A stretch of 64,000 nucleotides of DNA, taken from the IMG/VR virus record IMGVR_UViG_3300044998_001357, positions 84,784-148,783 of that record, one strand, 5' to 3'. Below, piece after piece: positions 51,062-64,000 of this stretch (its first letter is position 1; the number at the start of each line of letters is the position of its first letter). The notes below the pieces were generated by a model. It had not been told where the DNA came from. It saw nothing but the letters and a program-made list of their open reading frames with translations, and ran no database searches. The DNA is from a virus. The translations under genes were made by a program, and so were the position numbers.

Positions 51062-54000
51062 CTAATCTCGTCTCACGACAGCACCGTAGGGCTTGTCCTT
51101 GCCCCAGTGTTGTTTCCAGTTTTCGGCCCACCAGCCGCCCTGTCCATCGCGGGCAATCCATAGGTCACCCTGGGTATTTCTTGGTCCTATGGAATGGGCA
51201 AAACCACCCTGCGGGTCGTATTCCGGCACAGACTGCTGTCGCTGGAGCGTGCGGCCGACCATGTTGGCCATCAACAGTGCTGAATAGCGGTCCTTGCGCA
51301 AACGACCCTTCTTGCTGCCCACCGATTTCACCGAGGGTGTATCCCAGCGGTCACGCATGGAAGTGCCGGTCTGGGTGTGGATGATGGAGGCCAGTTCATC
51401 CTTGAGTTCCTCGATTTCCATGACGCAGTCTTCCAAGGTGTCGTAGAGTCGTCGAACGGAGGAGTCCTCAGGGTCGACCTGGACGCGCCCCAGGGCTTTG
51501 TCTTCCTCAAAGGCCAGCGCGACAATGGCCGGGTCAAAGGCAGGGAAGAGCAGGGCGCGGTCTTCGAAATCCTTTCGCATTCCGTGATTGGCGTCCCGCA
51601 CCCAGTCGGCATTGGCAAACGGGGCTGTCTCGATGATGTGCTCGCCCGAAAGCACATCAGTGGGACTGGGCTTTTTTTCGTCGATAATGGGCAAAATACG
51701 CACCTCACCGGGCTGTAGCCGGTTGGTGTCCTGGAGGGCCTCGATGATAGACACGCCACCACCTTGCATGTCCATGCAGATTCTCTGGCAGGGAAAGACG
51801 GCCAGTAGTTCGCGAATTTTCCGGGCGCAAAAACCGTAAAAGTCCTGGTCGGAAGCGAGACCCTTTTCCAGTCGCGACTTAAAGCGGGAGCGGGTGGTGG
51901 TCCAGCAGTAGACGATGCGGCGGTGTTCCGGCCAGCACTCCAGCACCACAATGCTGAAGTTATCCAGTTCGCTGGCCGGGTCGACCCCCATCACATAGTG
52001 ACGATTGGGCACCCCCTTGAGTACGGCATTGAAATGTACCGGTCCCGAGGAGGGATGCTCAATTACCCGTTCGCGGCGACCCACGACACAGGCCTCGATA
52101 AGGCTCCGCTTGAAGAAGCCGTTGGAATCCGTGGCGAAGACTGCCCCATATTCCATTTGGTAGGTGCCGATGTGGACCGTGGCCTTGGCCTGGGCAATCT
52201 GCTTAGGGTTCATGAATCCAGGCGGAAGGGCTTCAACCGGAATACGGATGATGCAATAGTCCTTCCAGTTTAGGTTCTTGTCGACCTTATCTGGGCCGCC
52301 AAACGCCTCGGCGAGCTTTCTCAGGTCTCCCTTGGATTCGATAATCGCCTTGTATCGTTTCCAGTAGTCGTAGAAATGGTTGAAGCTGTAGTAAGCGGTG
52401 CCGCTGATAATGGTCTGGTTGGTGACCGTCATCGACTCCTGGAGCGCCTGGTGGGCATCGGTCCACAGGCCCAGTTCCCGGATGGCCGACTTGCGTGCTT
52501 CTTGGATGGCCTCATCGACCGGGTTCATGTTCACGGCGGCAAAGCCGCGAACCACGGTCTCGAAGATGTCCTTCGGAATAGAGTTATGTTGAATAAAACA
52601 GTTGCCAATAAAACGATGTGTACCCGGGACGTGGTAGTCGTACAGGACGCGTTGGCCGGGAAGCGCCTCAACGAGACGGACACGCTCGCAGGAAGGTTTC
52701 TGCCCCTCTGCACCAGAAACGCCCGAATCAAGTAATCGAAACAGTTGCCCAAAGGAGCAGGAGTCAAATCTCAAGCACCAACACCCCTTAACCTCGCCGG
52801 CCGAACGGTGACAGACGATTCCGAACTTATGCAGCAGCACCTGCAACTCCCTGACGAGTTGCTCCGAGGGTGACTCGTACCGGCAGCTGCTAACGCCAAT
52901 GGTTCGGCTCAGGGCCTTGCCCTTATCAAACAATCCCGAAAGGAACGAGACAACAACCTCTCGTGGCGAGCGCAGGATGAACCAGGGGATTTTGCCGGGC
53001 TGCGCCGAGAGCTCCCTGCCGGTCGCCCTGGCAAAAGCCTCATCGACCACGCTGCCGTCGACGCTCGCCATTGTCTCAGGGAAGCGTCCGCTTGATTGGT
53101 GAACCAGATAATCCTCGGCGGAGAGTTCGTGGCCCAGTTTCCATCCCTTGGTCGTCAGAACCTTGTGGATGGAGGAACACACGAACTCGTAGCCGTTGGT
53201 CGTCGTCACCCGGTAGGCTTCGGTGGGGGGAGTCTCCACAAACAGGTCGGGAACGATAGGCTTGGAGTCGTCGGGTTGCAAGAGCGCATAACCGCCCGAG
53301 TCTGCTTCGTGGTCTCCAATGCGGACGAGGCCGCAGTCCGTTTCAATGAGCGTGTCCCTGTCTAGACAAGCAAATTCATCAGAGATGATGATGTTTGCTC
53401 TTTGTCCGCGAATCTTACTATTGTGGCTGATTATTCCAAATGCACAATATTCATGTATGTCTGGCACATGAATATCGTATGTTGCACATGAAGAGTCAAC
53501 TATTTCTTCAATTGTATCGTAGTAGATATCGGGATTGGCAAGCTCACGGAGCTTGGGCAGGAAGGCGTCTTGGACATGCGCGTACTTATCAACGAATTCC
53601 CGCGTGATACACGTCTCCTGCTTGGCGGAAAGCGCCTCTTTTAGTTGGTGCGACTTATGCGAAAGGCGAAAACCGATATGCTCGGCGAACCTGCGAACAT
53701 CCTGCCCGTAGATGAGCAACTCATATTTCTCGTTGTGTTCCCTTATGCGCAATCGGGAAATGATTCCGAAGTGAAGCAGGATGAACTGGAGTTGCCTCAC
53801 GAGCCGCTCGCTCGAGTTCGTGAAGCCGACAGTGACACCGCTTTTGGCTTTGCCGACCTGGATGTAGCCATTGGTGTCGTAGAGCCCCCGAATACAAGCC
53901 GACATCGCGTCGCGACCGGCGCGAAGTATCGCCGGCGGCAAGACCTTATCTTTCGTCGTCGAGTGCTCGGATTTGTCGTAGGCGTTGAAATGGGGGTGGT

Positions 54001-56140
54001 CGGAAATATTCGTCCCTCGATATAGCCATTCCTGGTCCATCGTGGCGCAGCCCAGCTTATATGGGTTGGTCCAGCAGCCGTCCCCAATCATGAGACCAAG
54101 GGTGTACGCCTCGTCTGTGGTTACCGGCTCCTGGCCCTTGTGCCACCGCCAAGAACGGTCGATGGGTAAGCGGTCGCCAGGACGGACTTGGTCGAGCCGT
54201 TTCCAGACAAACTCCAGACCTTCAAGCACTCGTATCTTGTGGTTGTGCGTTCCTTCCAGGCGAAGGCCTAGGGCCGTGGTTAGTACTTTGGTGTCCTTTA
54301 CGCCGTTGAAGTAGGACTCGTCAGAACGGACGAACTCCTTGCGTTCCGAAGACCAGACACGACGCTCGCGCGCGACCACAGGCTCCGCCACGCCGCCGCT
54401 GTCTTCGCCAATGGTTCCAAATCCGTCCTCATAGGTCACCATCGTATCGGCCGACAGGCAGCCATCTCCAAGGGGTAGGGCCACCAAGAGCGATTCGCCC
54501 AGACGAAGCGTGCAGCGGTCGATATCGCGTCGGGGGCCATTCTTTTTGTTATCACCAACGATATCGCGCAGGATGGGTGATTTTTCCCAGAAGTCGGCAC
54601 AGTAATCAAAAACCACTTTGGCCTGTCGAAAGGCCGCGCCGACAATCACTATCTTGCTACCCTGGTGAAAAAGACCGCGCAGCATGGCGTACAGGGCAAC
54701 GATGAAGCTATTGTGGGAGACGAAACCATTGCTGATAAAGGAGTTACCCTCCGGAACATGAACATCGTAGGTGACGCACCGCCCGGTCGATACCTTGGAA
54801 ATAGTGTCGAAATACCATCCTCGCGAGACCCATTCCCGCAGACGGCGATGAGCATCAGTATTGTAGTATTCCGACATATGAGCGAGAAACCCGTTAAGCC
54901 ACTCGTAAGTGCAGCAATAGTTTCGCGAAAACTTTGTAGTTCCACTTTGTCGTCTAACGCCGGTGCGCATCTGCATCAGCGAAATAACATCTTTTTCGAT
55001 AATAGAATAAGGTACGAAATCCTGGTCGGTGTTGTGCTTAAGCCCCGGCAGTTGCTTTCGCGTGAGACCAAAACCAATCTTGTCGCGAAACGCTACCAGG
55101 TCGTTGCTACGAATCTCCAGAACCCAATCGTTTTTTTGGTGGGGCTTGCTACGTTTGGCAATGATTCCGAAGCGAGTTAACAAGAACTGCACGGTCCTGA
55201 TGAGCTTTTCCGACTTCGCGGAGAGATGAACCGAGGATTCATCAACACCGCCATTGGTGTCGTAAAGACCCCGCAAAAACGCGGCGCACGCCTCCTTAGA
55301 ACCGGTAAGGATAGAGCGGGGAACATCTTTCTCTTCACAGACACTGGAAGGAAAACCGTATTCGGCAAGTGTTTCCTTGCTCGAATGGGTGTAGGCGTAC
55401 TTGGCCTTGCCCCAGTATTTTGCGACGACCTCGGCCAGTTCAGAGTCTGCTGTGGTAAGAGTGAAACCATCATCTCCTGCGATTAGACCAAGCAGATAGG
55501 CCAGGTCTTCAGGCAGACTTTTTTCCGGGGTGTGCCAGGACTCTCGTCTTTCAACAAGGATACTATCCCCGACCCGAACATCTGCGAGATTTCTCCAGAC
55601 AACTTTACCATCAGCCACAACCCGAACAGGATGATTGAGTGTTCCCTCAAGCTCAAAGCCCATTTTGCTCTCAATCCGAACCGTCTCCGACATCCCGTTG
55701 TTCCAGGAGTAGGCCACGTCCCGGAAGCCGTTTTCACCGTCGATGGTCAGCCCAGGCTTAAAAACGGGCTCCTGAATAGCTTCTGTTTGAGCAAGTTCAT
55801 CTATCCTGCAAATTCCCTGATTGGTGTGGACCAGAGTGTCTCCACGAACGCATTTTCCCAAACCTCGGCTTCCAATAAGCATTGGAAACGGACGTTTCCA
55901 GAGCTCCTGGAGAATGGCCAGCTGAAAAGGGTGGAGCCGGATTCCGAAGAGATGCTTCACAGTGAAATAAAAGTATTCAGGCTGCCGCATCAAATCGAGA
56001 CAATGCACCAGCGGCTGCTCGACCGCCTCGGGGGTCTGAGCCTCCAAAGGATTGATGGTCTGGATTTTGGTGGTATCACCCAAACCCATCCAGGCATTCT
56101 CGATATATTGTCTCTGCCACTCAATCGGCTTGTTTGACAT
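51062..56140 (-). CDS. terL: Terminase large subunit containing three inteins (~702 aa after splicing)
   Basis: Reconstructed exteins: Walker A GSRGLGK|S, LPLGDG|SKIRGQRANIIISDEFA|S (Walker B), ISGTA, nuclease MGVDPA, RKDRYSAL. Confidence 0.92.
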   Translation of the reverse strand: MSNKPIEWQRQYIENAWMGLGDTTKIQTINPLEAQTPEAVEQPLVHCLDLMRQPEYFYFTVKHLFGIRLHPFQLAILQELWKRPFPMLIGSRGLGKCVRGDTLVHTNQGICRIDELAQTEAIQEPVFKPGLTIDGENGFRDVAYSWNNGMSETVRIESKMGFELEGTLNHPVRVVADGKVVWRNLADVRVGDSILVERRESWHTPEKSLPEDLAYLLGLIAGDDGFTLTTADSELAEVVAKYWGKAKYAYTHSSKETLAEYGFPSSVCEEKDVPRSILTGSKEACAAFLRGLYDTNGGVDESSVHLSAKSEKLIRTVQFLLTRFGIIAKRSKPHQKNDWVLEIRSNDLVAFRDKIGFGLTRKQLPGLKHNTDQDFVPYSIIEKDVISLMQMRTGVRRQSGTTKFSRNYCCTYEWLNGFLAHMSEYYNTDAHRRLREWVSRGWYFDTISKVSTGRCVTYDVHVPEGNSFISNGFVSHNSFIVALYAMLRGLFHQGSKIVIVGAAFRQAKVVFDYCADFWEKSPILRDIVGDNKKNGPRRDIDRCTLRLGESLLVALPLGDGCLSADTMVTYEDGFGTIGEDSGGVAEPVVARERRVWSSERKEFVRSDESYFNGVKDTKVLTTALGLRLEGTHNHKIRVLEGLEFVWKRLDQVRPGDRLPIDRSWRWHKGQEPVTTDEAYTLGLMIGDGCWTNPYKLGCATMDQEWLYRGTNISDHPHFNAYDKSEHSTTKDKVLPPAILRAGRDAMSACIRGLYDTNGYIQVGKAKSGVTVGFTNSSERLVRQLQFILLHFGIISRLRIREHNEKYELLIYGQDVRRFAEHIGFRLSHKSHQLKEALSAKQETCITREFVDKYAHVQDAFLPKLRELANPDIYYDTIEEIVDSSCATYDIHVPDIHEYCAFGIISHNSKIRGQRANIIISDEFACLDRDTLIETDCGLVRIGDHEADSGGYALLQPDDSKPIVPDLFVETPPTEAYRVTTTNGYEFVCSSIHKVLTTKGWKLGHELSAEDYLVHQSSGRFPETMASVDGSVVDEAFARATGRELSAQPGKIPWFILRSPREVVVSFLSGLFDKGKALSRTIGVSSCRYESPSEQLVRELQVLLHKFGIVCHRSAGEVKGCWCLRFDSCSFGQLFRLLDSGVSGAEGQKPSCERVRLVEALPGQRVLYDYHVPGTHRFIGNCFIQHNSIPKDIFETVVRGFAAVNMNPVDEAIQEARKSAIRELGLWTDAHQALQESMTVTNQTIISGTAYYSFNHFYDYWKRYKAIIESKGDLRKLAEAFGGPDKVDKNLNWKDYCIIRIPVEALPPGFMNPKQIAQAKATVHIGTYQMEYGAVFATDSNGFFKRSLIEACVVGRRERVIEHPSSGPVHFNAVLKGVPNRHYVMGVDPASELDNFSIVVLECWPEHRRIVYCWTTTRSRFKSRLEKGLASDQDFYGFCARKIRELLAVFPCQRICMDMQGGGVSIIEALQDTNRLQPGEVRILPIIDEKKPSPTDVLSGEHIIETAPFANADWVRDANHGMRKDFEDRALLFPAFDPAIVALAFEEDKALGRVQVDPEDSSVRRLYDTLEDCVMEIEELKDELASIIHTQTGTSMRDRWDTPSVKSVGSKKGRLRKDRYSALLMANMVGRTLQRQQSVPEYDPQGGFAHSIGPRNTQGDLWIARDGQGGWWAENWKQHWGKDKPYGAVVRRD
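52583..53368 (-). mobile_element. Intein 3 (262 aa, decayed endonuclease) just after TerL Walker B
   Basis: CLDRDT...CSSIHKV...YDYHV...IQHN|S; only FLSGLFDK remains. Confidence 0.9.
53420..54460 (-). mobile_element. Intein 2 (347 aa, LAGLIDADG-type) in TerL
   Basis: CLSADT...GTHNHKI...YDIHV...ISHN|S; LGLMIGDG and IRGLYDTNG. Confidence 0.92.
54710..55852 (-). mobile_element. Intein 1 (381 aa, LAGLIDADG-type) in TerL Walker A
   Basis: CVRGDT...GTLNHPV...YDVHV...VSHN|S; LLGLIAGDDG and FLRGLYDTNG. Confidence 0.92.
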
Positions 56141-56588
56141 TTTCGATAACTCGCTTAAACAGAGAAGAAGCAAACTCTCGCCCCATTTGCCCCGCGAAAA
56201 TAAAGCGAGTTCGATAACGAATTTGAAACTCGTTTAATCTCTTGAGAAGAAACTGTGGCGAGATTCGCAGTGTGGACCAGCGAGAACGAGGAATTCCTGA
56301 GTTGTGGGGGAAATTTATAACGTCTTCAAGTGTAAATTCACACACAAGAAAAGGGTAAGCAAAAGATTCGAGACGCTGGAGTTCTCTCTCAAACCGGGAC
56401 TGAACGATGTTTTGAGAGATTTCACCCGTGCTCATTTTGCGTTCAATAACAAACACATTTTCATAGCCATCAAGCGTGTAGTCGCCCGTCTTGAGGGTGG
56501 CATCAACGGTCCCCAGACATAAGTCCTTCGCGGGAAAGTCCCAGCCTTGCTGCTCCCGGGTGTCGCGAAGAACCTTATATTTTTCCAT
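56121..56588 (-). CDS. ERCC4/XPF-family nuclease
   Basis: DTREQ, LKTGDY, IERK, RFERELQRL. Confidence 0.88.
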   Translation of the reverse strand: MEKYKVLRDTREQQGWDFPAKDLCLGTVDATLKTGDYTLDGYENVFVIERKMSTGEISQNIVQSRFERELQRLESFAYPFLVCEFTLEDVINFPHNSGIPRSRWSTLRISPQFLLKRLNEFQIRYRTRFIFAGQMGREFASSLFKRVIENVKQAD

Positions 56589-56713
56589 ATCTTTGTATCA
56601 GTATTCTCATCAAGACGTTCGAATGGGAGCGACGGATATGGTGGGCGCTTTAGTTGACAACCAGGCATTCGACAGCGACGGCGGTCTCGCTGCGGGTCTT
56701 GGTAATTTCTCAT
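56589..56713 (-). pseudogene. Probable HNH endonuclease remnant
   Basis: ATG overlaps the gmd stop; MRNYQDPQ-RDRRRCRMPGC-...YPSLPFE keeps the RDxxxCxxxxC start but has no HH/N/CxxCH. Confidence 0.5.
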
Positions 56714-57840
56714 AACTCCATTTTGGTCGGGTTGGCCGGCAACAACGGACAACGACTCATGTCTGCATACACCATCCGCTTAACCAGTTGCGTAAAGTTA
56801 ATCTCGGGCTTCCATCCGAGCTTTTGGTGCGCTTTGGTGGCCAGTCCCCGCAGATAGGGGACTTCGCACGGTCGGTCGTGTTCAGAGCTGTAGGCGACCT
56901 GGTAATTTTCGATGCCGGCAACCGCAAAGGCCTCGCGGTAAAACTGCTCAACCGAGTGGGTTTCCCCGGTAGCCAGGACATAGTCGTCGGGGGTCTCCTG
57001 CTGGAGCATGAGCCACATCCCACGGACATAATCCTCGGCATGTCCCCAGTCGCGTTTGGCGTGGATATTACCCAGTTCCAGTACGGGCAGAGGAAGCCCC
57101 CTGACTTGTTGCTCGGCGCAACGGGCGACATGCATGGAAATTTTCCGGGTTACGAAGTTCTCGCCCCGGTATTCCGACTCGTGGTTGAAGAGAATACCTG
57201 AGCAGGCGAAAAGACAATAGCTTTCCCGGTAGACTCGCACCAGGTGGTGCGCGGCCAGCTTGGCGATGGCGTAGGGGGAGTTGGGAAGCATGGGGGTTAA
57301 TTCGTCCTGGAAGGGTTCGAAATAGAAGGCCCGGTGGGACGACGGCATCCCTTGCGGAAAATCGCGTCGTTGTCCCTGGTAACCTTCGGGGTCGCCCAAA
57401 TCAGGAGCTTTCCGGGCACTGCAGGCCGAGCCAAACATCTCGCTACTGCCGGCCTGATAAAATCGCACTTTGTGACGAGGCGTAATGGAGTTAATGGCCT
57501 CCAGACAATTAAGAGCCCCCAGGTAGGTGGCGTTGGTGGTATGGGTCGGCTCGTGGAAGGAGTCGCCGACGTGGGACTGAGCAGCGAGGTTGTAGATTTC
57601 AACATCCGACTGCGAGGCTACCATCGAGATGATGCGATGAACCGAGGCGGCATCGGTCACATCTCCCCGAACGGAACGGTACTCCGGATAGAGGGTTACT
57701 CCCAGACGAGTCAGTCGCTCGTTGTTGGGGAGACTGGTGCGCCGACTGACACCAAAGACCTCGTACCCCTTCTGGAGCAGGAAACGCGCCAGATAAGCCC
57801 CGTCCTGACCGGTGACGCCAAAAATAATCGCCTTTTTCAT
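56710..57840 (-). CDS. gmd: GDP-mannose 4,6-dehydratase
   Basis: GVTGQDGAYLA, YNLAAQSHV, SSEMFG, SPYAIAK, GILFNHES, FVTRKI, RDWGHA; RBS GAGGAG. Confidence 0.95.
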   Translation of the reverse strand: MKKAIIFGVTGQDGAYLARFLLQKGYEVFGVSRRTSLPNNERLTRLGVTLYPEYRSVRGDVTDAASVHRIISMVASQSDVEIYNLAAQSHVGDSFHEPTHTTNATYLGALNCLEAINSITPRHKVRFYQAGSSEMFGSACSARKAPDLGDPEGYQGQRRDFPQGMPSSHRAFYFEPFQDELTPMLPNSPYAIAKLAAHHLVRVYRESYCLFACSGILFNHESEYRGENFVTRKISMHVARCAEQQVRGLPLPVLELGNIHAKRDWGHAEDYVRGMWLMLQQETPDDYVLATGETHSVEQFYREAFAVAGIENYQVAYSSEHDRPCEVPYLRGLATKAHQKLGWKPEINFTQLVKRMVYADMSRCPLLPANPTKMEL

Positions 57841-57841
57841 A

Positions 57842-58681
57842 TCACTCCTCCTCTCCATACTCCAAGGTATCGGCAGATAAAATAGGTAAGTCTTCGCTAT
57901 TGTCTTCGTACTTAAACGGCTTACCAAAATTCTCGTGGGCTTTCTGGCCGGCGAGTCGCATCAACTCCATCTCACGGCCCTCGCGGGCCTTGGCATCGCG
58001 CTGCTGGAGCATCTTGATGATAGAGATAAGATTGGTCTTGCTGCCCTCGATTTCCTTGATACGCTGGTCGCGAATGGCCTTAAGTGATTTCATCAACGAC
58101 TCGTGCCGCTCCTGCAGCTTCACGTACTCGTTGGTTCGACTTTGCTCAGCCGAGCGGTACGCATTCAACTGGTTTTCTAGATTCGTGGCGTATTCTCGGT
58201 CGCTCTCATCCATCGCGTTGTGGTCTTCAGCGAACTGCTCCAGGTGGTCGCGAAGTACCCGCTCCAGGCGGTCAATCTCATCCCGAGCCCGGCGACGCTC
58301 CTTAAGGTTACGCGCCATCAGTAGTTCATATTTGATTGCCTGGAAAAGTTGCGTCTCTTCAGACGGCAGAACGTCGTCCTTAAACTGACTCATCAGCTTA
58401 ACATACGTCTCTTCAAAATATTTGATTTCTTCGTTGGAGAATTCGTTGCGAAGCATTTTCCACGCCTCGCTTAATCGAAGCTCCTGGCGGATGACCAGTT
58501 TTTTGGCTTCGCTCTCATCAATCTCGCGCATGGTTTCCGGGGCGTGCAACCGAAGAAATTCGGTCACACACTCCACGGTCCGTTTGAGTTTAACAGCGAT
58601 GTCATCGGGTTTCATCGTATCTGACCAGCGGAGAATCAGGTCTTGCTCCGCCTTACTCAATCGGCCCCGTTTAATGTTCAT
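57842..58681 (-). CDS. HTH/coiled-coil protein, candidate terminase small subunit
   Basis: N-terminal HTH (PDDIAVKLKRT) plus long coiled coil, upstream of TerL. Confidence 0.5.
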   Translation of the reverse strand: MNIKRGRLSKAEQDLILRWSDTMKPDDIAVKLKRTVECVTEFLRLHAPETMREIDESEAKKLVIRQELRLSEAWKMLRNEFSNEEIKYFEETYVKLMSQFKDDVLPSEETQLFQAIKYELLMARNLKERRRARDEIDRLERVLRDHLEQFAEDHNAMDESDREYATNLENQLNAYRSAEQSRTNEYVKLQERHESLMKSLKAIRDQRIKEIEGSKTNLISIIKMLQQRDAKAREGREMELMRLAGQKAHENFGKPFKYEDNSEDLPILSADTLEYGEEE

Positions 58682-59252
58682 GGATTACCTCTTTCAGAAT
58701 GGTTCGAACCGCTTCCTCGACCTGCGTGCGTTGATGCTTAGGCACAGAGACGCCATCACGCATCTTCAGATAAAGAGACTGAAGTTCCAAAGGCAGGTGT
58801 TCTCGAATCCGATGGATGAGCTCGCGAACCTCAACATCATCACTTTGTCTGGCCTCGCAGGTGCCCTCGACAAACTCTCCGGGTCGAATGAGGTTAGATT
58901 TGGTTTGGTTGAGCTTCGACCACCGGGCATATCGCTTGCAAAAACCCCCATCAGGCATGCAGGGATTGCCTGAGTGGCATTTCTTGCAGGGAGGGTCGTG
59001 TCGATGGACCTTGTCGCGCACCAGATTGATTAGTCTGTTCCTTACATGAATATATAAGAAATTGGCTAGTGGTCTGGATGGGTCGTATTTACCACTATTG
59101 AGAAGTCTTAATGCGAAGAGTCTCCCGTCCTGCTTGATGTCTTCGATGTCATGATAGCCAAAAACATAGGTCCGAGCTAGAACAGAAACTACTTTATCGA
59201 TAGTCTCCAGCACCTCAGCTTCTGTCTTGCCCGGGGGTAAAATCATCGTCAC
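58671..59252 (-). CDS. Phage sigma70-family factor with Cys/His insert (alternative start ATG 59246)
   Basis: Region 2 pattern DIEDIKQDG...YDPSRPLANFLYIHVRNRLINLVRD; CKKCH...C...C insert; truncated region 4. Confidence 0.75.
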   Translation of the reverse strand: MTMILPPGKTEAEVLETIDKVVSVLARTYVFGYHDIEDIKQDGRLFALRLLNSGKYDPSRPLANFLYIHVRNRLINLVRDKVHRHDPPCKKCHSGNPCMPDGGFCKRYARWSKLNQTKSNLIRPGEFVEGTCEARQSDDVEVRELIHRIREHLPLELQSLYLKMRDGVSVPKHQRTQVEEAVRTILKEVIHEH

Positions 59253-59376
59253 CAGTCTCCGAAAATAGGGCAGCCATCGCCTTCTCTTGGGGCGGGTCAG
59301 GGGTTAGAAGCTCCTGTTCCGTGGGTTTCGCGGCGGAGCCTGAGGCCTTCACGACAAGATGGCAAAAAATATCCAT
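59215..59376 (-). CDS. Small hypothetical protein, 53 aa (not in the ORF track)
   Basis: MDIFCHLVVKASGS...; lies 35 nt downstream of a GGTGTA motif. Confidence 0.35.
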   Translation of the reverse strand: MDIFCHLVVKASGSAAKPTEQELLTPDPPQEKAMAALFSETGDDDFTPGQDRS

Positions 59377-59410
59377 GTATAGTACTCACGATGAGGCGAT
59401 AAAAACCGCA

Positions 59411-59416
59411 TACACC
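59411..59416 (-). promoter_or_regulatory. Candidate late promoter GGTGTA at the head of the sigma/packaging operon
   Basis: TACACC on the + strand at 59411-59416. Confidence 0.45.
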
Positions 59417-59574
59417 GGCTCTTGATTTTTTGAAGCTAACCAGTAAGCTAGTTAGGGCGATACAGATGGGCTAGTGGGGGACTGTTGTGTCTGAACCCCC
59501 GCCGGGTTCTGAGGCCCTCCCCCGGGGCCTGCGCGAGAACAGAAAAACCCCCCCTACCCGTGACGCCAGGAAAA

Positions 59575-59627
59575 AAATTTTCTCTCTCGCGCGCCTCCCC
59601 CCCTATATCTGGGTGAGCCAAACGGAC
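59575..59627 (+). promoter_or_regulatory. Duplicated early promoter, copy 1
   Basis: AAATTTTC-N21-TATATCTGGGTGAGCCAAACGGAC; 28-bp exact repeat 59600-59627. Confidence 0.65.
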
Positions 59628-59680
59628 CGCACGGTGCGGCACACGGGTGGCGGGGCACACGGGACACACGGGGGACGGAC

Positions 59681-59914
59681 ATGATGACGCTGAACCAAAT
59701 CGCGGCACGATTCCATCAGCTCAAGCGAGAGCTCATGGCGACGATGCACGCCGAGGAGTTTGAACTGCGAAGAGCGGTTAGCGGCCTTGGCCTAACCGCA
59801 AAAGAATGCGAAGAAACTCTGGCGGAATGCCTAGAGTTGGCAGGAAACGGCACGGGCGAGATTATCGCTCAAATGGCGGACATGTACGACATGTACGTCA
59901 AATTTTCGAGGTGA
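59681..59914 (+). CDS. Hypothetical early protein
   Basis: 77 aa, RBS GGGGA/GGA, between the two promoter repeats. Confidence 0.7.
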   Translation: MMTLNQIAARFHQLKRELMATMHAEEFELRRAVSGLGLTAKECEETLAECLELAGNGTGEIIAQMADMYDMYVKFSR

Positions 59915-59952
59915 AGCGGTTTCACCCCTATATCTGGGTGAGCCAAACGGAC
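59900..59952 (+). promoter_or_regulatory. Duplicated early promoter, copy 2
   Basis: Same bipartite motif and spacing; 28-bp repeat 59925-59952. Confidence 0.65.
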
Positions 59953-60050
59953 GCAAGCGTAGAGGGAGTCGCGCCCCAACGTCCGGATGGGTGGTATGTC
60001 GCCACCCCAACACAACACCGACATGCCCTCATCGGGCAAAGGGAGATGCT

Positions 60051-60455
60051 ATGCAACTGCAAGACTACACGAAGGCCCAGCTGGTTATGATGCTCGCGGA
60101 CAACGGCGTGACCGCGCCGAAGTCGTGGACGAAGGAGAAATGCATTGAGGCCCTGGAAGGCAAGCGCCTTCCAAAGGGGATGGCAAAGTCGGTAGCCGCA
60201 CTCAAGGCCGAGGCAAAGGCCCGTGGCCTGGCGGGTTACTCGACCATGAACCGGGACCAACTCGTGGAGTACCTGCGGACGGGCGTCCGTCCGCAGAAGG
60301 CCTCCGTCAAGGAAGGCACGATGGACTACCTGCGTCATCTGGCCACGCAGTTCCGCGTCAAGGGCCGTAGCGCGGCCACCAACAAGGCCGCGCTCATCAA
60401 GCTCCTACGGGAGAACGGCGTCAATATCACCCCTGAAGGGAGACGCGCCGCGTAA
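60051..60455 (+). CDS. Protein with three tandem Rho-N/SAP-like (helix-extension-helix) domains
   Basis: YTKAQL...TKEKCIEAL; SVAALKAEAKARGLAGYSTMNRDQLVEYL; TMDYLRHLA...NKAALIKLL; RBS GGGAG. Confidence 0.75.
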   Translation: MQLQDYTKAQLVMMLADNGVTAPKSWTKEKCIEALEGKRLPKGMAKSVAALKAEAKARGLAGYSTMNRDQLVEYLRTGVRPQKASVKEGTMDYLRHLATQFRVKGRSAATNKAALIKLLRENGVNITPEGRRAA

Positions 60456-60776
60456 GGGGCGCTGACGCCACAAGAAGAAACCGTCCGCACGGTGGGAAGT
60501 GCGGAACCCCAGACTGGGTGGGACACCGGAGATGCGGCCTACCGCATCGGACGTAGGTGTTACGGCGGACAACGTCCGCTTGGGGCCGAACGAGTAATCG
60601 TCGGACTTTCCCCTGGGGTACGCGGCATCTGAAAGGACCGCGTCTGGTGTGGCCGTGTGAGGCTTACACCAATCGTCGCACGCCACTAGCTCTACCTTCC
60701 TCGGAAGGGAGCCAGACGTGCAGAGGGGGACCGTAATCTCCTCGCGTCCGAAGGGTACGTCATCACCCTTCGCTAT
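60456..60776 (+). ncRNA. Candidate large structured non-coding RNA (unidentified)
   Basis: ~320-nt gap with no credible sense ORF and many stems (GATGCGG/CCGCATC, GGACGT/ACGTCC, ACGCGG/CCGCGT, TGGTGT/ACACCA, CCTTCC/GGAAGG, CGAAGGGT/ACCCTTCG). Confidence 0.45.
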
Positions 60777-60857
60777 GCAGAGTGGCCCACTCTCCATTGG
60801 GAGAGTGGGTTAATGCCCCAGCACTATGTGGTGTAGTGCTGGCCGTCACAAGGCGGC
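60777..60857 (+). ncRNA. Twister ribozyme, type-P5 permutation, copy 1 (predicted cut U60811/A60812)
   Basis: GCA-GAGUG-[P1 hairpin]-UAA-UGC-CC-[P3]-GCCG-UCACAAGG-CGGC; pseudoknots AC:GU and CC:GG. Confidence 0.85.
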
Positions 60858-60891
60858 ATTCGTGCGGAGACGCCGCTCCGCAAGGTGAACA

Positions 60892-61812
60892 ATGTTTGCA
60901 CTACCAATGGCCCCCACTCGGGGGGCTACCCCAAAAAAGGGGACCAAGGGGTACACACCCATTATGAGCATGGGGAAACTCCATGCTCTCACGAAGCGGT
61001 TGATGTCTGCCGCATCCCTTGAGGATGCGGCAGACATCCTCACTCAGGCAGCTGCTCAGCTGCCCGAGGGGAAAAGAAATTGGCGGTACTTCATACTGGC
61101 CCTCGCTGAGGGCCTACGGACACACAAAACGCCCTTCGCTGTCTTCGCGAAGGGCAACAGTAAGTTGCCATTCTACTCATTCTCCACACTGCCCCAGTAC
61201 ACGTGTCCTGGGGCAGGGGAGTGCCTCGACTTCTGCTACTCTTTCACCGGGTGGCGGTATCCCGCCACCTGGGCTCGCCAGGTACAGAACACACTGTACC
61301 TGCGCTTCCTCCCGGAGGTCATCCGGGAGGCTTTCCTCGGACTACCTAGTGATGTAGTGGTCCGACTATACGTGGATGGCGACTTCGGCAGCCATGCCGA
61401 CTTCGCCTTCTGGATGAACGCCCTAGCCGCCAGGCCCGACATTAGGGCCTACGGGTACTCAAAGTCTTGGGACATCATCTGGGAGTATTCCCGGACTGCC
61501 GCCGTCCCAAACAACTACGTTCTCAACTTGTCCTCTGGGGCAAAACCCCAGGGGGTTAGCAAAGAGCAGATGTTCACTCTCCCCTTTGTGCGGGGGGAGT
61601 TTGTGGCGGTCACCCCTCAGAGCGAGGGGATAGCCCGAGGGTTCAAACGGTACGACGACCCGGCCTACCATCGGGCGGTCAGAGCGGCCGCGAAGGAAGC
61701 CGGGATGGGCAAGGTGTTCTCATGCCCCGGCAAATGCGGGGAATGCTGTGGGGCCAACCATGCCTGTGGCATGATTGGCCTAAAGGTCACAATCGCTATC
61801 GGAACACACTAA
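60892..61812 (+). CDS. GP88-family (radical-SAM-like, Fe-S) phage protein
   Basis: GNSKL...TCPGAGECLDFCY, VRLYVDGDF, YGYSK, C-terminal CPGKCGEC...HAC; alternative start 60964. Confidence 0.75.
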   Translation: MFALPMAPTRGATPKKGTKGYTPIMSMGKLHALTKRLMSAASLEDAADILTQAAAQLPEGKRNWRYFILALAEGLRTHKTPFAVFAKGNSKLPFYSFSTLPQYTCPGAGECLDFCYSFTGWRYPATWARQVQNTLYLRFLPEVIREAFLGLPSDVVVRLYVDGDFGSHADFAFWMNALAARPDIRAYGYSKSWDIIWEYSRTAAVPNNYVLNLSSGAKPQGVSKEQMFTLPFVRGEFVAVTPQSEGIARGFKRYDDPAYHRAVRAAAKEAGMGKVFSCPGKCGECCGANHACGMIGLKVTIAIGTH

Positions 61813-61821
61813 CTAATACGA

Positions 61822-61857
61822 TGTTGCCCACCACTTCTGGGGAGGTGGTGGGCGATA
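61822..61857 (+). other. 16-bp intergenic RNA hairpin abutting the next RBS
   Basis: TGTTGCCCACCACTTC-tggg-GAGGTGGTGGGCGATA, with G-U pairs and no U-tract. Confidence 0.65.
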
Positions 61858-61869
61858 GAGGAGGTTCAA

Positions 61870-62229
61870 ATGAAGTTCCAGTTGAACTGTGTGGAGTTGA
61901 AGCTTGAGCTTGTGTCATCCGGGGACGGATGGCACAATGGGGTTGTGACAACCCCGGATGGGCAGGTTTTCCATGTGGGCGGGGGCTGGACGCATACGCC
62001 AGAGTCTGCCCTCCGCGATAACCACTGCCGTGGATTGGCGGTGGACGCTTGCCCCGGCATTCGCTGGCCGGGGGCGGTCGAAGAGGGGGAATTTGAGGCC
62101 TACGCCGGCGATGATATAGGCGACCTTGACGGCCTGCTTCGGGCCGTCGGCCTCTCAAACGAAGAGAGGCAGCAAGCAGTATGTGTGGTTCAGGACGCCT
62201 CACGCGAGGCGTTCCTGGCTCTAGACTAG
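61870..62229 (+). CDS. Hypothetical acidic early protein
   Basis: 119 aa, RBS GAGGAGG. Confidence 0.75.
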   Translation: MKFQLNCVELKLELVSSGDGWHNGVVTTPDGQVFHVGGGWTHTPESALRDNHCRGLAVDACPGIRWPGAVEEGEFEAYAGDDIGDLDGLLRAVGLSNEERQQAVCVVQDASREAFLALD

Positions 62230-62315
62230 CAGAGTGGCCCGTCCCCCTATAGAGGGGGGGCGGGTTAATGCCCCGGCTTGTCGCATGGTGCGGCAGTCGG
62301 CCGTCACAAGGCGGC
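62229..62315 (+). ncRNA. Twister ribozyme, type-P5 permutation, copy 2 (predicted cut U62266/A62267)
   Basis: Same core; P1 and P3 sequences differ but still pair (UGUCGCA/UGCGGCA). Confidence 0.85.
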
Positions 62316-62357
62316 ATTCACGCGGGGAGCCGCCCCGCGCAGGAGAAGATAAGACCG

Positions 62358-63458
62358 ATGGAAAAGAACATGCTCGTTATCCTCGGGGCATCCGACCCCG
62401 AGATGGCCCTTATCGAAGAGTTGTGCAGGGACTACAGCATCCCCTACGCCTACGCCATCGGGGGTGACGGTCGCCGGGTGCACCCCGGCGACGCCTATAA
62501 GGCATCAGGCCTGCAATGGCCTGGCAAGGCAGGCGGACCCGGGTGGGGGGATGTGACCCACTTGATTGAATGCTCGCCATCCGGCGAGCACCAGGACGCC
62601 ATACGCTCCGATGTGGTGGTGATTGACCACCACCGGCCGGGCGACCCCGGCTATGGTCGTGGTCCCGAGGAGTTCATGGCTGCCTCCTCGGTCGGGCAGT
62701 TCATTGCCGAGCTTGCCCGGCTCGGCATCTACGGATGTCGACATAGCAGTAACGACCCGGCCTACGACCTGTGGGGAGGCCGGGGAAAGGCGTTCGCCGG
62801 AGCAATCGACCGGCGAAAGGATTGGCAGTGGGACTACTATGTAGCCACCACTGCCCCCGCCTCGGGCGGGGTTATTGGTATCTCCTCTCGCGGCGCTCGG
62901 CGGTCCAGCGCCTCCGACATGGAGGCGTACGGGAAACGGGAAGGGGGGATGCTGTCCCCCGACGAGCGGCGCATCCTTGAAGACTCGTCCCCACCAGTGG
63001 AGAAGGTCACACTGCGTTGGGTTGCCATCCTGCAAGACATCGTGAGGGCCGCAGCGGCCGACCATTGCTTGGAGGCCGCATACCGGGGACGGTGCCCTGG
63101 GGTCGACCCCGATGCCCTCATGCGGTGGAGAGCGGACTCCCGTGCCGCTTTCCAGCGTCGGCCTGTCGAGGCCGTGCTGGCCGACATCGAGGCGGCACGG
63201 CAGCGGCTGCGAATGGCTTCATCGGGTGAATTCGCTGACCTGCGAGGGGAGTCTATCCCCGAGCTACCGGAGGCGGCGGCCCGGGAAGGAATTCCGTTCT
63301 TGGCCGACCAGACCGACCGCTCCGGTCGGCGCAAGGTGGTGCTGATGGCGGCACCGGCAGACCTTGTACAGCGGTTCTTGGCCGGGGAAATCGTCCCCAG
63401 CCTGGTGGACCACTACGGCGACCCCGCACGTGGGTTTGCCGGTGGTTACATACAGTGA
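62358..63458 (+). CDS. DHH-motif protein (DHH phosphoesterase-like)
   Basis: Start MEKNMLVILGASDPEM after AGGAG; VVVIDHHRPG; AAADH. Confidence 0.6.
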   Translation: MEKNMLVILGASDPEMALIEELCRDYSIPYAYAIGGDGRRVHPGDAYKASGLQWPGKAGGPGWGDVTHLIECSPSGEHQDAIRSDVVVIDHHRPGDPGYGRGPEEFMAASSVGQFIAELARLGIYGCRHSSNDPAYDLWGGRGKAFAGAIDRRKDWQWDYYVATTAPASGGVIGISSRGARRSSASDMEAYGKREGGMLSPDERRILEDSSPPVEKVTLRWVAILQDIVRAAAADHCLEAAYRGRCPGVDPDALMRWRADSRAAFQRRPVEAVLADIEAARQRLRMASSGEFADLRGESIPELPEAAAREGIPFLADQTDRSGRRKVVLMAAPADLVQRFLAGEIVPSLVDHYGDPARGFAGGYIQ

Positions 63459-63459
63459 T

Positions 63460-63545
63460 GCAGAGTGGCCCGCTCTCCCTATAGAGGGGGGAGCGGGTTA
63501 ATGCCCCAGCACTATGTGGTGTAGTGCTGGCCGTCACAAGGCGGC
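63460..63545 (+). ncRNA. Twister ribozyme, type-P5 permutation, copy 3 (predicted cut U63499/A63500)
   Basis: Same core; 55 nt identical to copy 1 (63495-63549 = 60807-60861). Confidence 0.85.
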
Positions 63546-63584
63546 ATTCAAGCGGGGACGCCGCCCCGCAAGGAGATGAGACCA

Positions 63585-64000
63585 ATGGAAAAAAACACCC
63601 CCACTGAAGCGGCAGCAGCGCTCGCTGGGCTGCTGACGCAATATAAGGCGGCTCTAGCGGCCCGCCACGCGGCCGAAGAGGCCCTAGACCAGGAGGCCAT
63701 TGATGCGGCCAACGCGGGTCTGGGACAGATACGCGACAAAGTCCGGGAGATGATGAAGAACATCTCCCCGGAGGAGTTGAGCGACCGCCGATGTTATACG
63801 CTCGTGTTAGCCGCATCTCGCGGCGCAACGCCGCGAGGCCTCCGCGATATTGCGGAGGCTCTCGTAGTCTCTTGCGAGGACGGTATCACCGTCCCAGCGC
63901 ACCGGTACGAGTCTATGTTCCGGGGCCGTGGCTGGGCGCGGCTTGAGAAAGGTGATGGTGATGGTGAGGTCTGGGCCGAACGTGTGGCAGGCGGATACCG
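63585..64000 (+). CDS. Hypothetical early protein, runs off the window (not in the ORF track)
   Basis: AAGGAG-N9-ATG; MEKNTPTEAAAALAGLL... open to the window end. Confidence 0.7.
   Translation, partial: MEKNTPTEAAAALAGLLTQYKAALAARHAAEEALDQEAIDAANAGLGQIRDKVREMMKNISPEELSDRRCYTLVLAASRGATPRGLRDIAEALVVSCEDGITVPAHRYESMFRGRGWARLEKGDGDGEVWAERVAGGY

Follow-up and report, generated by a model that had tools for sequence, protein, structure and literature searches.

In this study, we identified five type-P5 twister ribozymes in the genome of an uncultivated phage, apparently from a hot spring, that is held in IMG/VR as record IMGVR_UViG_3300044998_001357. The record is 148,783 bp long with an estimated completeness of about 99%; the stretch analysed here, its last 64 kb (64,000 nt, hereafter the window), holds three of the copies, and positions prefixed C1 are coordinates of the whole record. 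The copies could be assigned to their family, counted and placed directly on the sequence, and both covariation and conservation of a composite cassette, in which the ribozyme is joined to a small hairpin and a translation start, were observed among relatives. We consider it probable that the ribozymes let a polycistronic phage RNA process itself into gene-sized mRNAs with protected, standardised ends.

Five copies of a Twister-P5 ribozyme

The twister class is said to go back to Roth et al. in 2014. A cmscan search of the whole window at Rfam gathering thresholds gave a single match, to Twister-P5 (RF02684; gathering score 37.6 bits), at 63459-63545 on the + strand (copy 3; 38.0 bits). Searching positions 55000-64000 again at a permissive threshold gave two further + strand matches to the full-length model, at 60776-60857 (copy 1; 37.0 bits, E 6e-5) and 62228-62315 (copy 2; 34.8 bits, E 2e-4). 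Copies A and B, near 19 kb of the record, scored 37.3 and 37.4 bits against the same model. A motif scan, the Rfam model and R1, a covariance model of the whole cassette (126 positions) built in this study, agreed on a genome total of exactly five copies, all on the + strand, at C1:19157 (A), C1:19821 (B), C1:145560, C1:147012 and C1:148243, the last three being window copies 1 to 3. The cassettes scored 121-129 bits with R1 (E about 1e-25), far beyond chance, and the same Rfam search in 14 control genomes gave nothing above the cut-off. In the whole genome, no other Rfam family reached its gathering score and no tRNA was found. The window copies and the parts of copy 1 are as follows.

60777..60857, + strand: Twister-P5 copy 1 (Rfam 37.0 bits; R1 129.2 bits)
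60777-79 with 60814-16, + strand: P2 of copy 1
60780-84, + strand: L1 of copy 1
60785-60810, + strand: P1 hairpin of copy 1
60811/60812, + strand: predicted cleavage of copy 1, between U60811 and A60812
60817-18, + strand: L2 (CC) of copy 1
60819-41, + strand: P3 of copy 1
60842-45 with 60854-57, + strand: P4 of copy 1
60846-53, + strand: L4 of copy 1
62229..62315, + strand: Twister-P5 copy 2 (Rfam 34.8 bits; R1 121.2 bits), predicted cleavage 62266/62267
63460..63545, + strand: Twister-P5 copy 3 (Rfam 38.0 bits; R1 125.6 bits), predicted cleavage 63499/63500

An initial annotation of the window had already read three type-P5 twisters from the letters, with P2 starting at 60777, 62229 and 63460 and cleavage at U^AA at the three positions listed. 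All of these coordinates are correct on reading the sequence, and the covariance-model search confirms the P5 identity at each site. The count of three holds for the window and falls short of the genome, which carries two more. Searching the genome and its relatives for further copies, as that annotation had proposed, yielded these two near 19 kb and an alignment of 20 distinct copies. Relatives were found by an exact-pattern scan for the L1/P2/L2 and P4/L4 cores, and the same core variant was present in five further viral contigs, eight metagenome contigs and one Bacillota metagenome-assembled genome.

Conservation of the catalytic core and covariation of the helices

Within the twister clan the best match was the P5 model, which was matched over its full length (positions 1-58). 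All uppercase core positions of the consensus were matched, apart from the compensated T2 pair and covarying helix positions. Judged by this family membership, the elements are type-P5 twister ribozymes. They resemble the Rfam type in having a loop-closed P1, ends after P4, L1, the UAA site, P2, L4 and the tertiary contacts T1 and T2, and they possess the optional P3. They differ from it in a long P3 (about 10 bp), a P1 of 11-13 bp, a 3-pair P2 and the lack of a P5 helix, for which at most 2 pairs are possible between the flanks, as well as in a conserved AUUC and a covarying hairpin after P4, which lie outside the Rfam model.

In the published twister architecture, T2 joins a conserved dinucleotide in L2 to two bulged nucleotides of L4, and T1 consists of three Watson-Crick pairs (PMC5408937). 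Both contacts can be traced in our alignment. All 20 copies carry identical L1 (GAGUG) and UAA, in alignment with the consensus, and L4 is likewise invariant, departing from the consensus only where T1 and T2 are compensated. The three T1 pairs between L1 and L4 are possible in all 20 copies as G-C, U-A and G-C, the middle U-A replacing the G-C of both the Rfam consensus and L029, a contig of another phage that carries a Twister-P5. T2 is CC:GG in every copy, GC:GC in the consensus and AC:GU in L029. These double changes relative to the consensus and L029 indicate that both pseudoknots are maintained. L2 comprises exactly two nucleotides, because the next column covaries from C-G to U-A with the last P3 column. 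The assignment of L1, P2, L4, T1 and T2 made in the initial annotation is right, and so is its reading of CC:GG as compensatory. P2, T1, T2, L1, L4 and UAA do not vary within this subfamily.

The helices behave differently from this fixed core. In a model-based alignment of the 20 copies, with T1 and T2 entered as pseudoknots, standard pairs occupied 97.2% of cells, compared with 37-49% when partners were slid by 1-3 columns, a figure to be read with the caveat that the alignment was fitted to the model itself. Twenty-four of 37 pairs changed on both sides, and 0 of 500 shuffles equalled any observed measure of covariation. Double-sided changes affected 8 of 9 pairs in P1, 10 of 10 in P3 and 5 of 6 in the trailing hairpin, and the 4-bp P4 was paired in 97.5% of cells. 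Run unguided on ten complete cassettes, RNAalifold predicted the same set of helices, namely P2, P1, P3, P4 and the trailing hairpin. The hairpins thus vary in sequence and keep their pairing, as had been noticed from the three window copies.

Two relatives show what happens in copies that have decayed. At L009:1781-1898 (- strand), L1 and L4 have been lost while a P1-like hairpin, P3, the trailing hairpin, the SD (Shine-Dalgarno) sequence and the gene have been kept. At L054:9889-10008 (+ strand), L1 and L4 are also lost, with hairpins and SD kept, in front of a homologue of gene c (see below) that is 89% identical. These copies are evidence of ribozyme turnover, and their loss of L1 and L4 shows that selection holds the invariant core seen elsewhere.

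The trailing hairpin and ribosome-binding site

Downstream of each window copy come AUUC, two variable bases and a GC hairpin (6-7 bp), and then an SD-like sequence and an ATG.

60858..60894, + strand: trailing module of copy 1; AUUC linker 60858-61, hairpin 60864-81 (6 bp, 6-nt loop), SD-like AAGGUG 60882-87, ATG 60892 of gene a
62316..62360, + strand: trailing module of copy 2; AUUC 62316-19, 7-bp hairpin 62321-39, AGGAG 62341-45, ATG 62358 of gene c
63546..63587, + strand: trailing module of copy 3; AUUC 63546-49, 6-bp hairpin 63552-69, AAGGAG 63570-75, ATG 63585 of gene d, with an additional in-frame ATG ahead of it at 63576

On the upstream side, copy 2 overlaps the TAG stop codon of gene b by one base, its own first G, and copy 3 begins 1 nt past the TGA stop codon of gene c (63456-58). 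Copy 1 is preceded by a gene-free spacer of about 320 nt downstream of a SAP/Rho_N gene.

This order of stop codon, ribozyme, hairpin, ribosome-binding site (RBS) and ATG, also described in the initial annotation, is real and recurs in relatives. The ribozyme starts -1 to +5 nt from a stop codon in 12 of 19 copies, and a start codon preceded by an SD-like sequence lies 4-52 nt past P4 on the same strand in 13 of 19. AUUC and then a hairpin follow P4 in 12 of 20 copies (with AUUU once, and displaced by 4 nt in one), and in most of those 12, including all five here, the hairpin ends 0-6 nt ahead of the SD. AUUC is absent, too, from the six copies without the hairpin. In the AT-rich contig L023 the cassette is laid out in the same way, yet P1 and the trailing hairpin differ entirely in sequence, and this constitutes the strongest evidence that the trailing hairpin is selected as an RNA structure.

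The role of the linker is less clear-cut. In some minimum-energy folds the UUC of AUUC pairs with the GGA of the SD across a 2x2 internal loop; both sides are invariant, and hence no covariation signal can be obtained for this pairing. The predicted folds suggest that AUUC may pair weakly with the first SD bases. A single-stranded A/U-rich nuclease site is a further candidate idea that fits the linker. A post-cleavage clamp, in which the new 5' end would pair with GCAUU after P4, was disfavoured in minimum-energy folds, where it competes with P4.

Two other arrangements were seen at such junctions. In the metagenome copies at L020:7206-7308 and L022:3445-3538 (- strand), the start codon lies only 4-5 nt past P4, and nothing resembles an SD except the AAGG within the catalytic L4 loop, so that ribozyme folding and translation initiation would compete. 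At the junction of genes a and b (61826-61853, + strand), a 12-bp GC-rich hairpin and an RBS are present with no ribozyme core; the twister is therefore absent from some junctions of the module.

The spacer ahead of copy 1 (60456-60776, + strand) is GC-rich and lies between the SAP/Rho_N-domain gene (60051-60455) and the ribozyme. It folds better than shuffled sequences (z -3.3) and terminates in an 8-bp hairpin (60749-60772) 4 nt ahead of copy 1. On cleavage, it would leave with the upstream product.

A proposed route from polycistronic RNA to single-gene messages

The five + strand copies flank genes a-b, c, d, d' and e; since no terminator-like sites lie between the genes, we infer a single transcription unit. 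In the proposed mechanism, five ribozymes embedded in + strand polycistronic transcripts would each fold during transcription, forming P2, P1 and then P3 and P4 together with T1 and T2, and would cut themselves between U and AA. On the upstream message, the P1 hairpin and a 2',3'-cyclic phosphate would form the end, just beyond the stop codon. The downstream message would begin with a 5'-OH, followed by P3, P4, the AUUC linker and the small GC hairpin, and its SD and start codon would be presented directly after that hairpin. In this way mRNA stability and translation would be uncoupled from neighbouring cistrons, with no host RNase required.

Because P1 is loop-closed in the P5 permutation, the whole P1 hairpin would stand at the extreme 3' end of the upstream product, which is predicted to lie 35-40 nt beyond the stop codon. 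The predicted stability of P1 is -21 to -26 kcal/mol at 37 C and -12 to -16 kcal/mol at 65 C. Such modelled values would suit a hot-spring host and a protective 3' end, and the long GC-rich P1 and P3 fit the apparent hot-spring source.

Several points weigh against this reading. Four of the five copies score 0.2-2.8 bits under the Rfam gathering threshold because of the P3 insertion and the variant T2 nucleotides, with only copy 3 above it. P2 has 3 Watson-Crick pairs (GCA/UGC) compared with 4 in the consensus, the fourth being a mismatch in every copy; the 50-bit element of L029 likewise has a 3-pair P2, and on these sequences the short helix is a tolerated variant of the P5 type and not grounds for exclusion. 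Catalytic activity, cleavage in vivo and effects on mRNA stability and translation are what we infer from sequence. Decayed ribozymes in front of gene c in relatives and the plain hairpin at the a/b junction indicate that cleavage is not required at every junction. If the host possesses RNase J, a 5'-OH end could destabilise the message. Lastly, nested folds showed the accessibility of SD and AUG to be about unchanged by cleavage (the rows for copy 2 and for the second L005 copy were unusable, the SD pattern having hit a site inside the hairpin). Given that predicted accessibility is similar before and after the cut, translation activated by cleavage was rejected as an explanation.

The first two of these points, together with the hairpins, RBS and gene retained by the decayed copies of relatives, might be taken to mean that the elements no longer cleave and that their structure alone matters, for instance in stabilising hairpin arrays, in binding proteins or as a target of RNase III-type enzymes. 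We regard this as highly improbable, because L1, L4, UAA, T1 and T2 are invariant in 20 of 20 copies while the helices vary, which is the signature of a maintained active site, and because the decayed copies display how the loss of that constraint looks.

The ribozymes could also be active and yet down-regulate or time expression, not insulate or stabilise it: accessory genes would be cut from the main transcript with their ends exposed to host nucleases, as in glmS, and their expression would be short-lived or held at a low level. Besides a DHH-type phosphoesterase, the cassettes flank small accessory genes whose function is unknown, the predicted accessibility of the SD is not improved by cleavage, and the 5'-OH product of glmS is degraded (PMC6765202), all of which would be in keeping with this idea. 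However, both cut ends are strongly structured and look protective, with P1 (-21 to -26 kcal/mol) forming the 3' end and P3 only 7 nt from the 5' end, and the conserved hairpin-plus-SD module suggests that the downstream gene is meant to be translated. Down-regulation therefore appears unlikely to be the main function, and self-processing into stable single-gene mRNAs is the explanation we prefer.

Cassettes as possible joints between accessory genes

The 19-kb module, which runs b' - twister A - d' - twister B - e, is 74-89% identical to the module at the right end of the window. Gene order differs between modules and relatives as follows, a slash marking a cassette.

Window right end: a - b / c / d
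19 kb left: b' / d' / e
L005: b / d / c

The differences fall exactly at the cassettes. The ribozyme helices have also been reassorted: copies 1 and 3 have a common P3, copy A shares its P3 with the second L005 copy, and the P1 of that L005 copy is a chimera of two types. Conservation moreover extends beyond the ribozyme, reaching the last 30 nt or so of gene b and the opening codons (M-E-K) of genes c and d, which are unrelated to each other. Together with the decayed copies of relatives, this points to an additional role for the cassettes as recombination joints and suggests that no individual ribozyme is essential.

Could their main selective value then lie at the DNA level, as portable module boundaries of about 125-150 nt for homologous recombination, with RNA cleavage secondary? 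The precise coincidence of reordering with cassettes, the reassorted and chimeric helices, the conservation reaching into genes b, c and d and the tendency of assemblies to break at or near cassettes would all be expected on this view. Recombination alone, however, leaves the invariant catalytic core and the compensatory changes in every helix unexplained; the RNA fold itself is under selection, and both roles are compatible. We therefore think it quite unlikely that the DNA role comes first. A combined view, in which the selected unit is the portable cassette of ribozyme, AUUC, hairpin and translation-initiation region, serving both as an RNA cutter that gives standard ends and as a DNA recombination joint for the duplication, swapping and reordering of accessory genes, is one that we advance only tentatively. 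RNA self-processing remains our preferred account of what the ribozymes do.

The duplication also affects the record itself. The assembly stops inside the duplicated stretch (window 63800-64000), which is 89% identical overall to C1:19157-19689, and the last 200 or so bases of this contig-end duplicate look identical to the d' copy. A circular genome obtained by joining the contig ends was rejected, as gene d is not continued at the contig start. Three related contigs (L007, L008 and L005) likewise terminate at or beside a cassette. Since repeats break assemblies, copy numbers in relatives are probably underestimated.

Flanked genes and genome context

The genes adjoining the cassettes are listed below; searches of Pfam, PHROGs and NCBIfam gave nothing for genes b, c and d.

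60892..61812, + strand: gene a, 306 aa, first after copy 1; Pfam GP88 family PF17338 (E 1.9e-16), a phage protein of unknown function
61870..62229, + strand: gene b, 119 aa, no known family
C1:18782-19156: b', paralogue of gene b, upstream of copy A
62358..63458, + strand: gene c, 366 aa, DHH/DHHA1-like phosphoesterase between copies 2 and 3
63585..64000, + strand: gene d, truncated by the contig end
C1:19274-19798: d', paralogue of gene d, full length (174 aa), between copies A and B

At least 893 unannotated proteins, mostly from metagenomes and phages, make up the family of gene c, in which the DHH motif is invariant. Its AlphaFold model (mean pLDDT, the predicted local distance difference test score, 77.8) was closest to NrN, a DHH-family phosphodiesterase solved with SAM-AMP (S-adenosylmethionine-AMP), with Z 11.1 and a root-mean-square deviation of 4.1 A over 212 aligned residues; RecJ, GdpP, NrnA and other DHH/DHHA1 proteins followed at Z 5.5-7.6. 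On the basis of this model, gene c probably encodes a divergent DHH/DHHA1-type phosphoesterase, and its product could be a nanoRNase or a signal-degrading counter-defence enzyme. An obligatory link between gene c and the twister was rejected, a Twister-P5 being found upstream in only 2 of 20 other viral loci of the family, and hammerheads were found at two of those 20. The association is with ribozyme-rich phage neighbourhoods and not with gene c specifically. In the viral contig L029, a type II hammerhead (679-744; 49.5 bits) and a Twister-P5 (827-894; 50.1 bits) stand in tandem on the + strand, 83 nt apart; a homologue of gene c lies about 300 nt downstream of them.

The sequence was found exclusively in DNA runs, labelled as hot-spring and microbial-mat metagenomes. 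No GenBank phage carries the cassette, and the terminase of the phage shares no more than 30% identity with its counterpart in any isolate. The start of the contig encodes, on the same strand as the cassettes, a gpA-type terminase, a lambda-family portal and a capsid protein, then a beta-helix fibre protein and a peptidase, and then twisters A and B. Ribonucleotide reductase, DnaB helicase and a split DNA polymerase lie at 61-82 kb (C1), the replication genes being about 40-60 kb beyond the head genes and left cassettes, and the tape-measure protein is on the - strand. With cassettes on either side of the head genes, the twister clusters bracket the head module. The description of the region as early in the initial annotation finds no support, as the cassettes share a strand with the terminase, portal and capsid genes and flank these on either side.

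The + strand block of the window begins at a divergent junction near 59.4 kb. Two exact 28-nt repeats (59600-59627 and 59925-59952, + strand), found nowhere else in the genome, stand one upstream of each of the first two + strand open reading frames (ORFs) at this junction and are candidate phage promoters or operators. A sigma-70 region-2-like ORF (58671-59252, - strand) adjoins them. Elsewhere, the DNA polymerase is split into two ORFs (C1:77646-79589 and 80914-82584), and a 1703-aa ORF (window 51062-56173, - strand) contains intein splicing and LAGLIDADG homing-endonuclease domains.

Relation to known systems and significance

In phage T7, RNase III cuts the polycistronic RNA of the early genes at structured intergenic sites into gene-sized mRNAs. 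The products there likewise end in a protective hairpin; whereas T7 relies on a host enzyme, the RNA here would cut itself and leave 5'-OH and cyclic-phosphate ends. RiboJ-type insulators are engineered parts in which a hammerhead removes the variable 5' untranslated region, arranged as ribozyme, short hairpin, RBS and start codon. The cassettes have the same order of parts, and after the cut the downstream mRNA would likewise keep most of the ribozyme at its 5' end, although they are natural twisters, of which copies 2, 3, A and B abut or closely trail the upstream stop codon. This likeness is an analogy of architecture and not family membership.

The idea of ribozyme arrays that separate genes is older. 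In 2011, hammerhead arrays flanking single genes in prophages were proposed to process long transcripts into single-gene mRNAs, and these hammerheads cleave in vitro and in E. coli (PMC3088659). A review in 2019 made the same suggestion for twisters, which occur near phage genes, while regarding the function of bacterial ribozymes as largely elusive (PMC6765202). The arrays of 2011 resemble the present locus in having several ribozymes of the same orientation around small accessory phage genes and in the proposed function. They differ in ribozyme class and in that their cleavage was demonstrated, whereas it is predicted here; furthermore, no standard trailing module of hairpin and RBS was described for them, unlike the cassettes here. 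A search of the accessible literature found no description of twister arrays in phage operons or of a natural ribozyme-hairpin-RBS module. The comparison with synthetic insulators in the initial annotation is fair as far as architecture goes, although the idea of cutting phage RNA into single-gene mRNAs had already been put forward in 2011 and 2019. Both the ribozyme class and the gene-flanking array arrangement are already known, and the locus adds no new RNA class or principle.

In summary, the locus offers a compact test case, with five near-identical catalytic cores that carry different helices and occupy a fixed position after stop codons, a conserved hairpin-plus-RBS module and, in relatives, natural 'dead' copies as controls. 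If cleavage occurs as proposed, the phage would process its own operon RNA without host RNases, and the cassettes would be thermostable natural parts analogous to synthetic ribozyme insulators. If the cassettes do act in both RNA cutting and recombination, self-cleaving ribozymes would mark the boundaries of a natural gene-cassette system in hot-spring phages, one that carries a possible counter-defence NrN-like DHH phosphoesterase.

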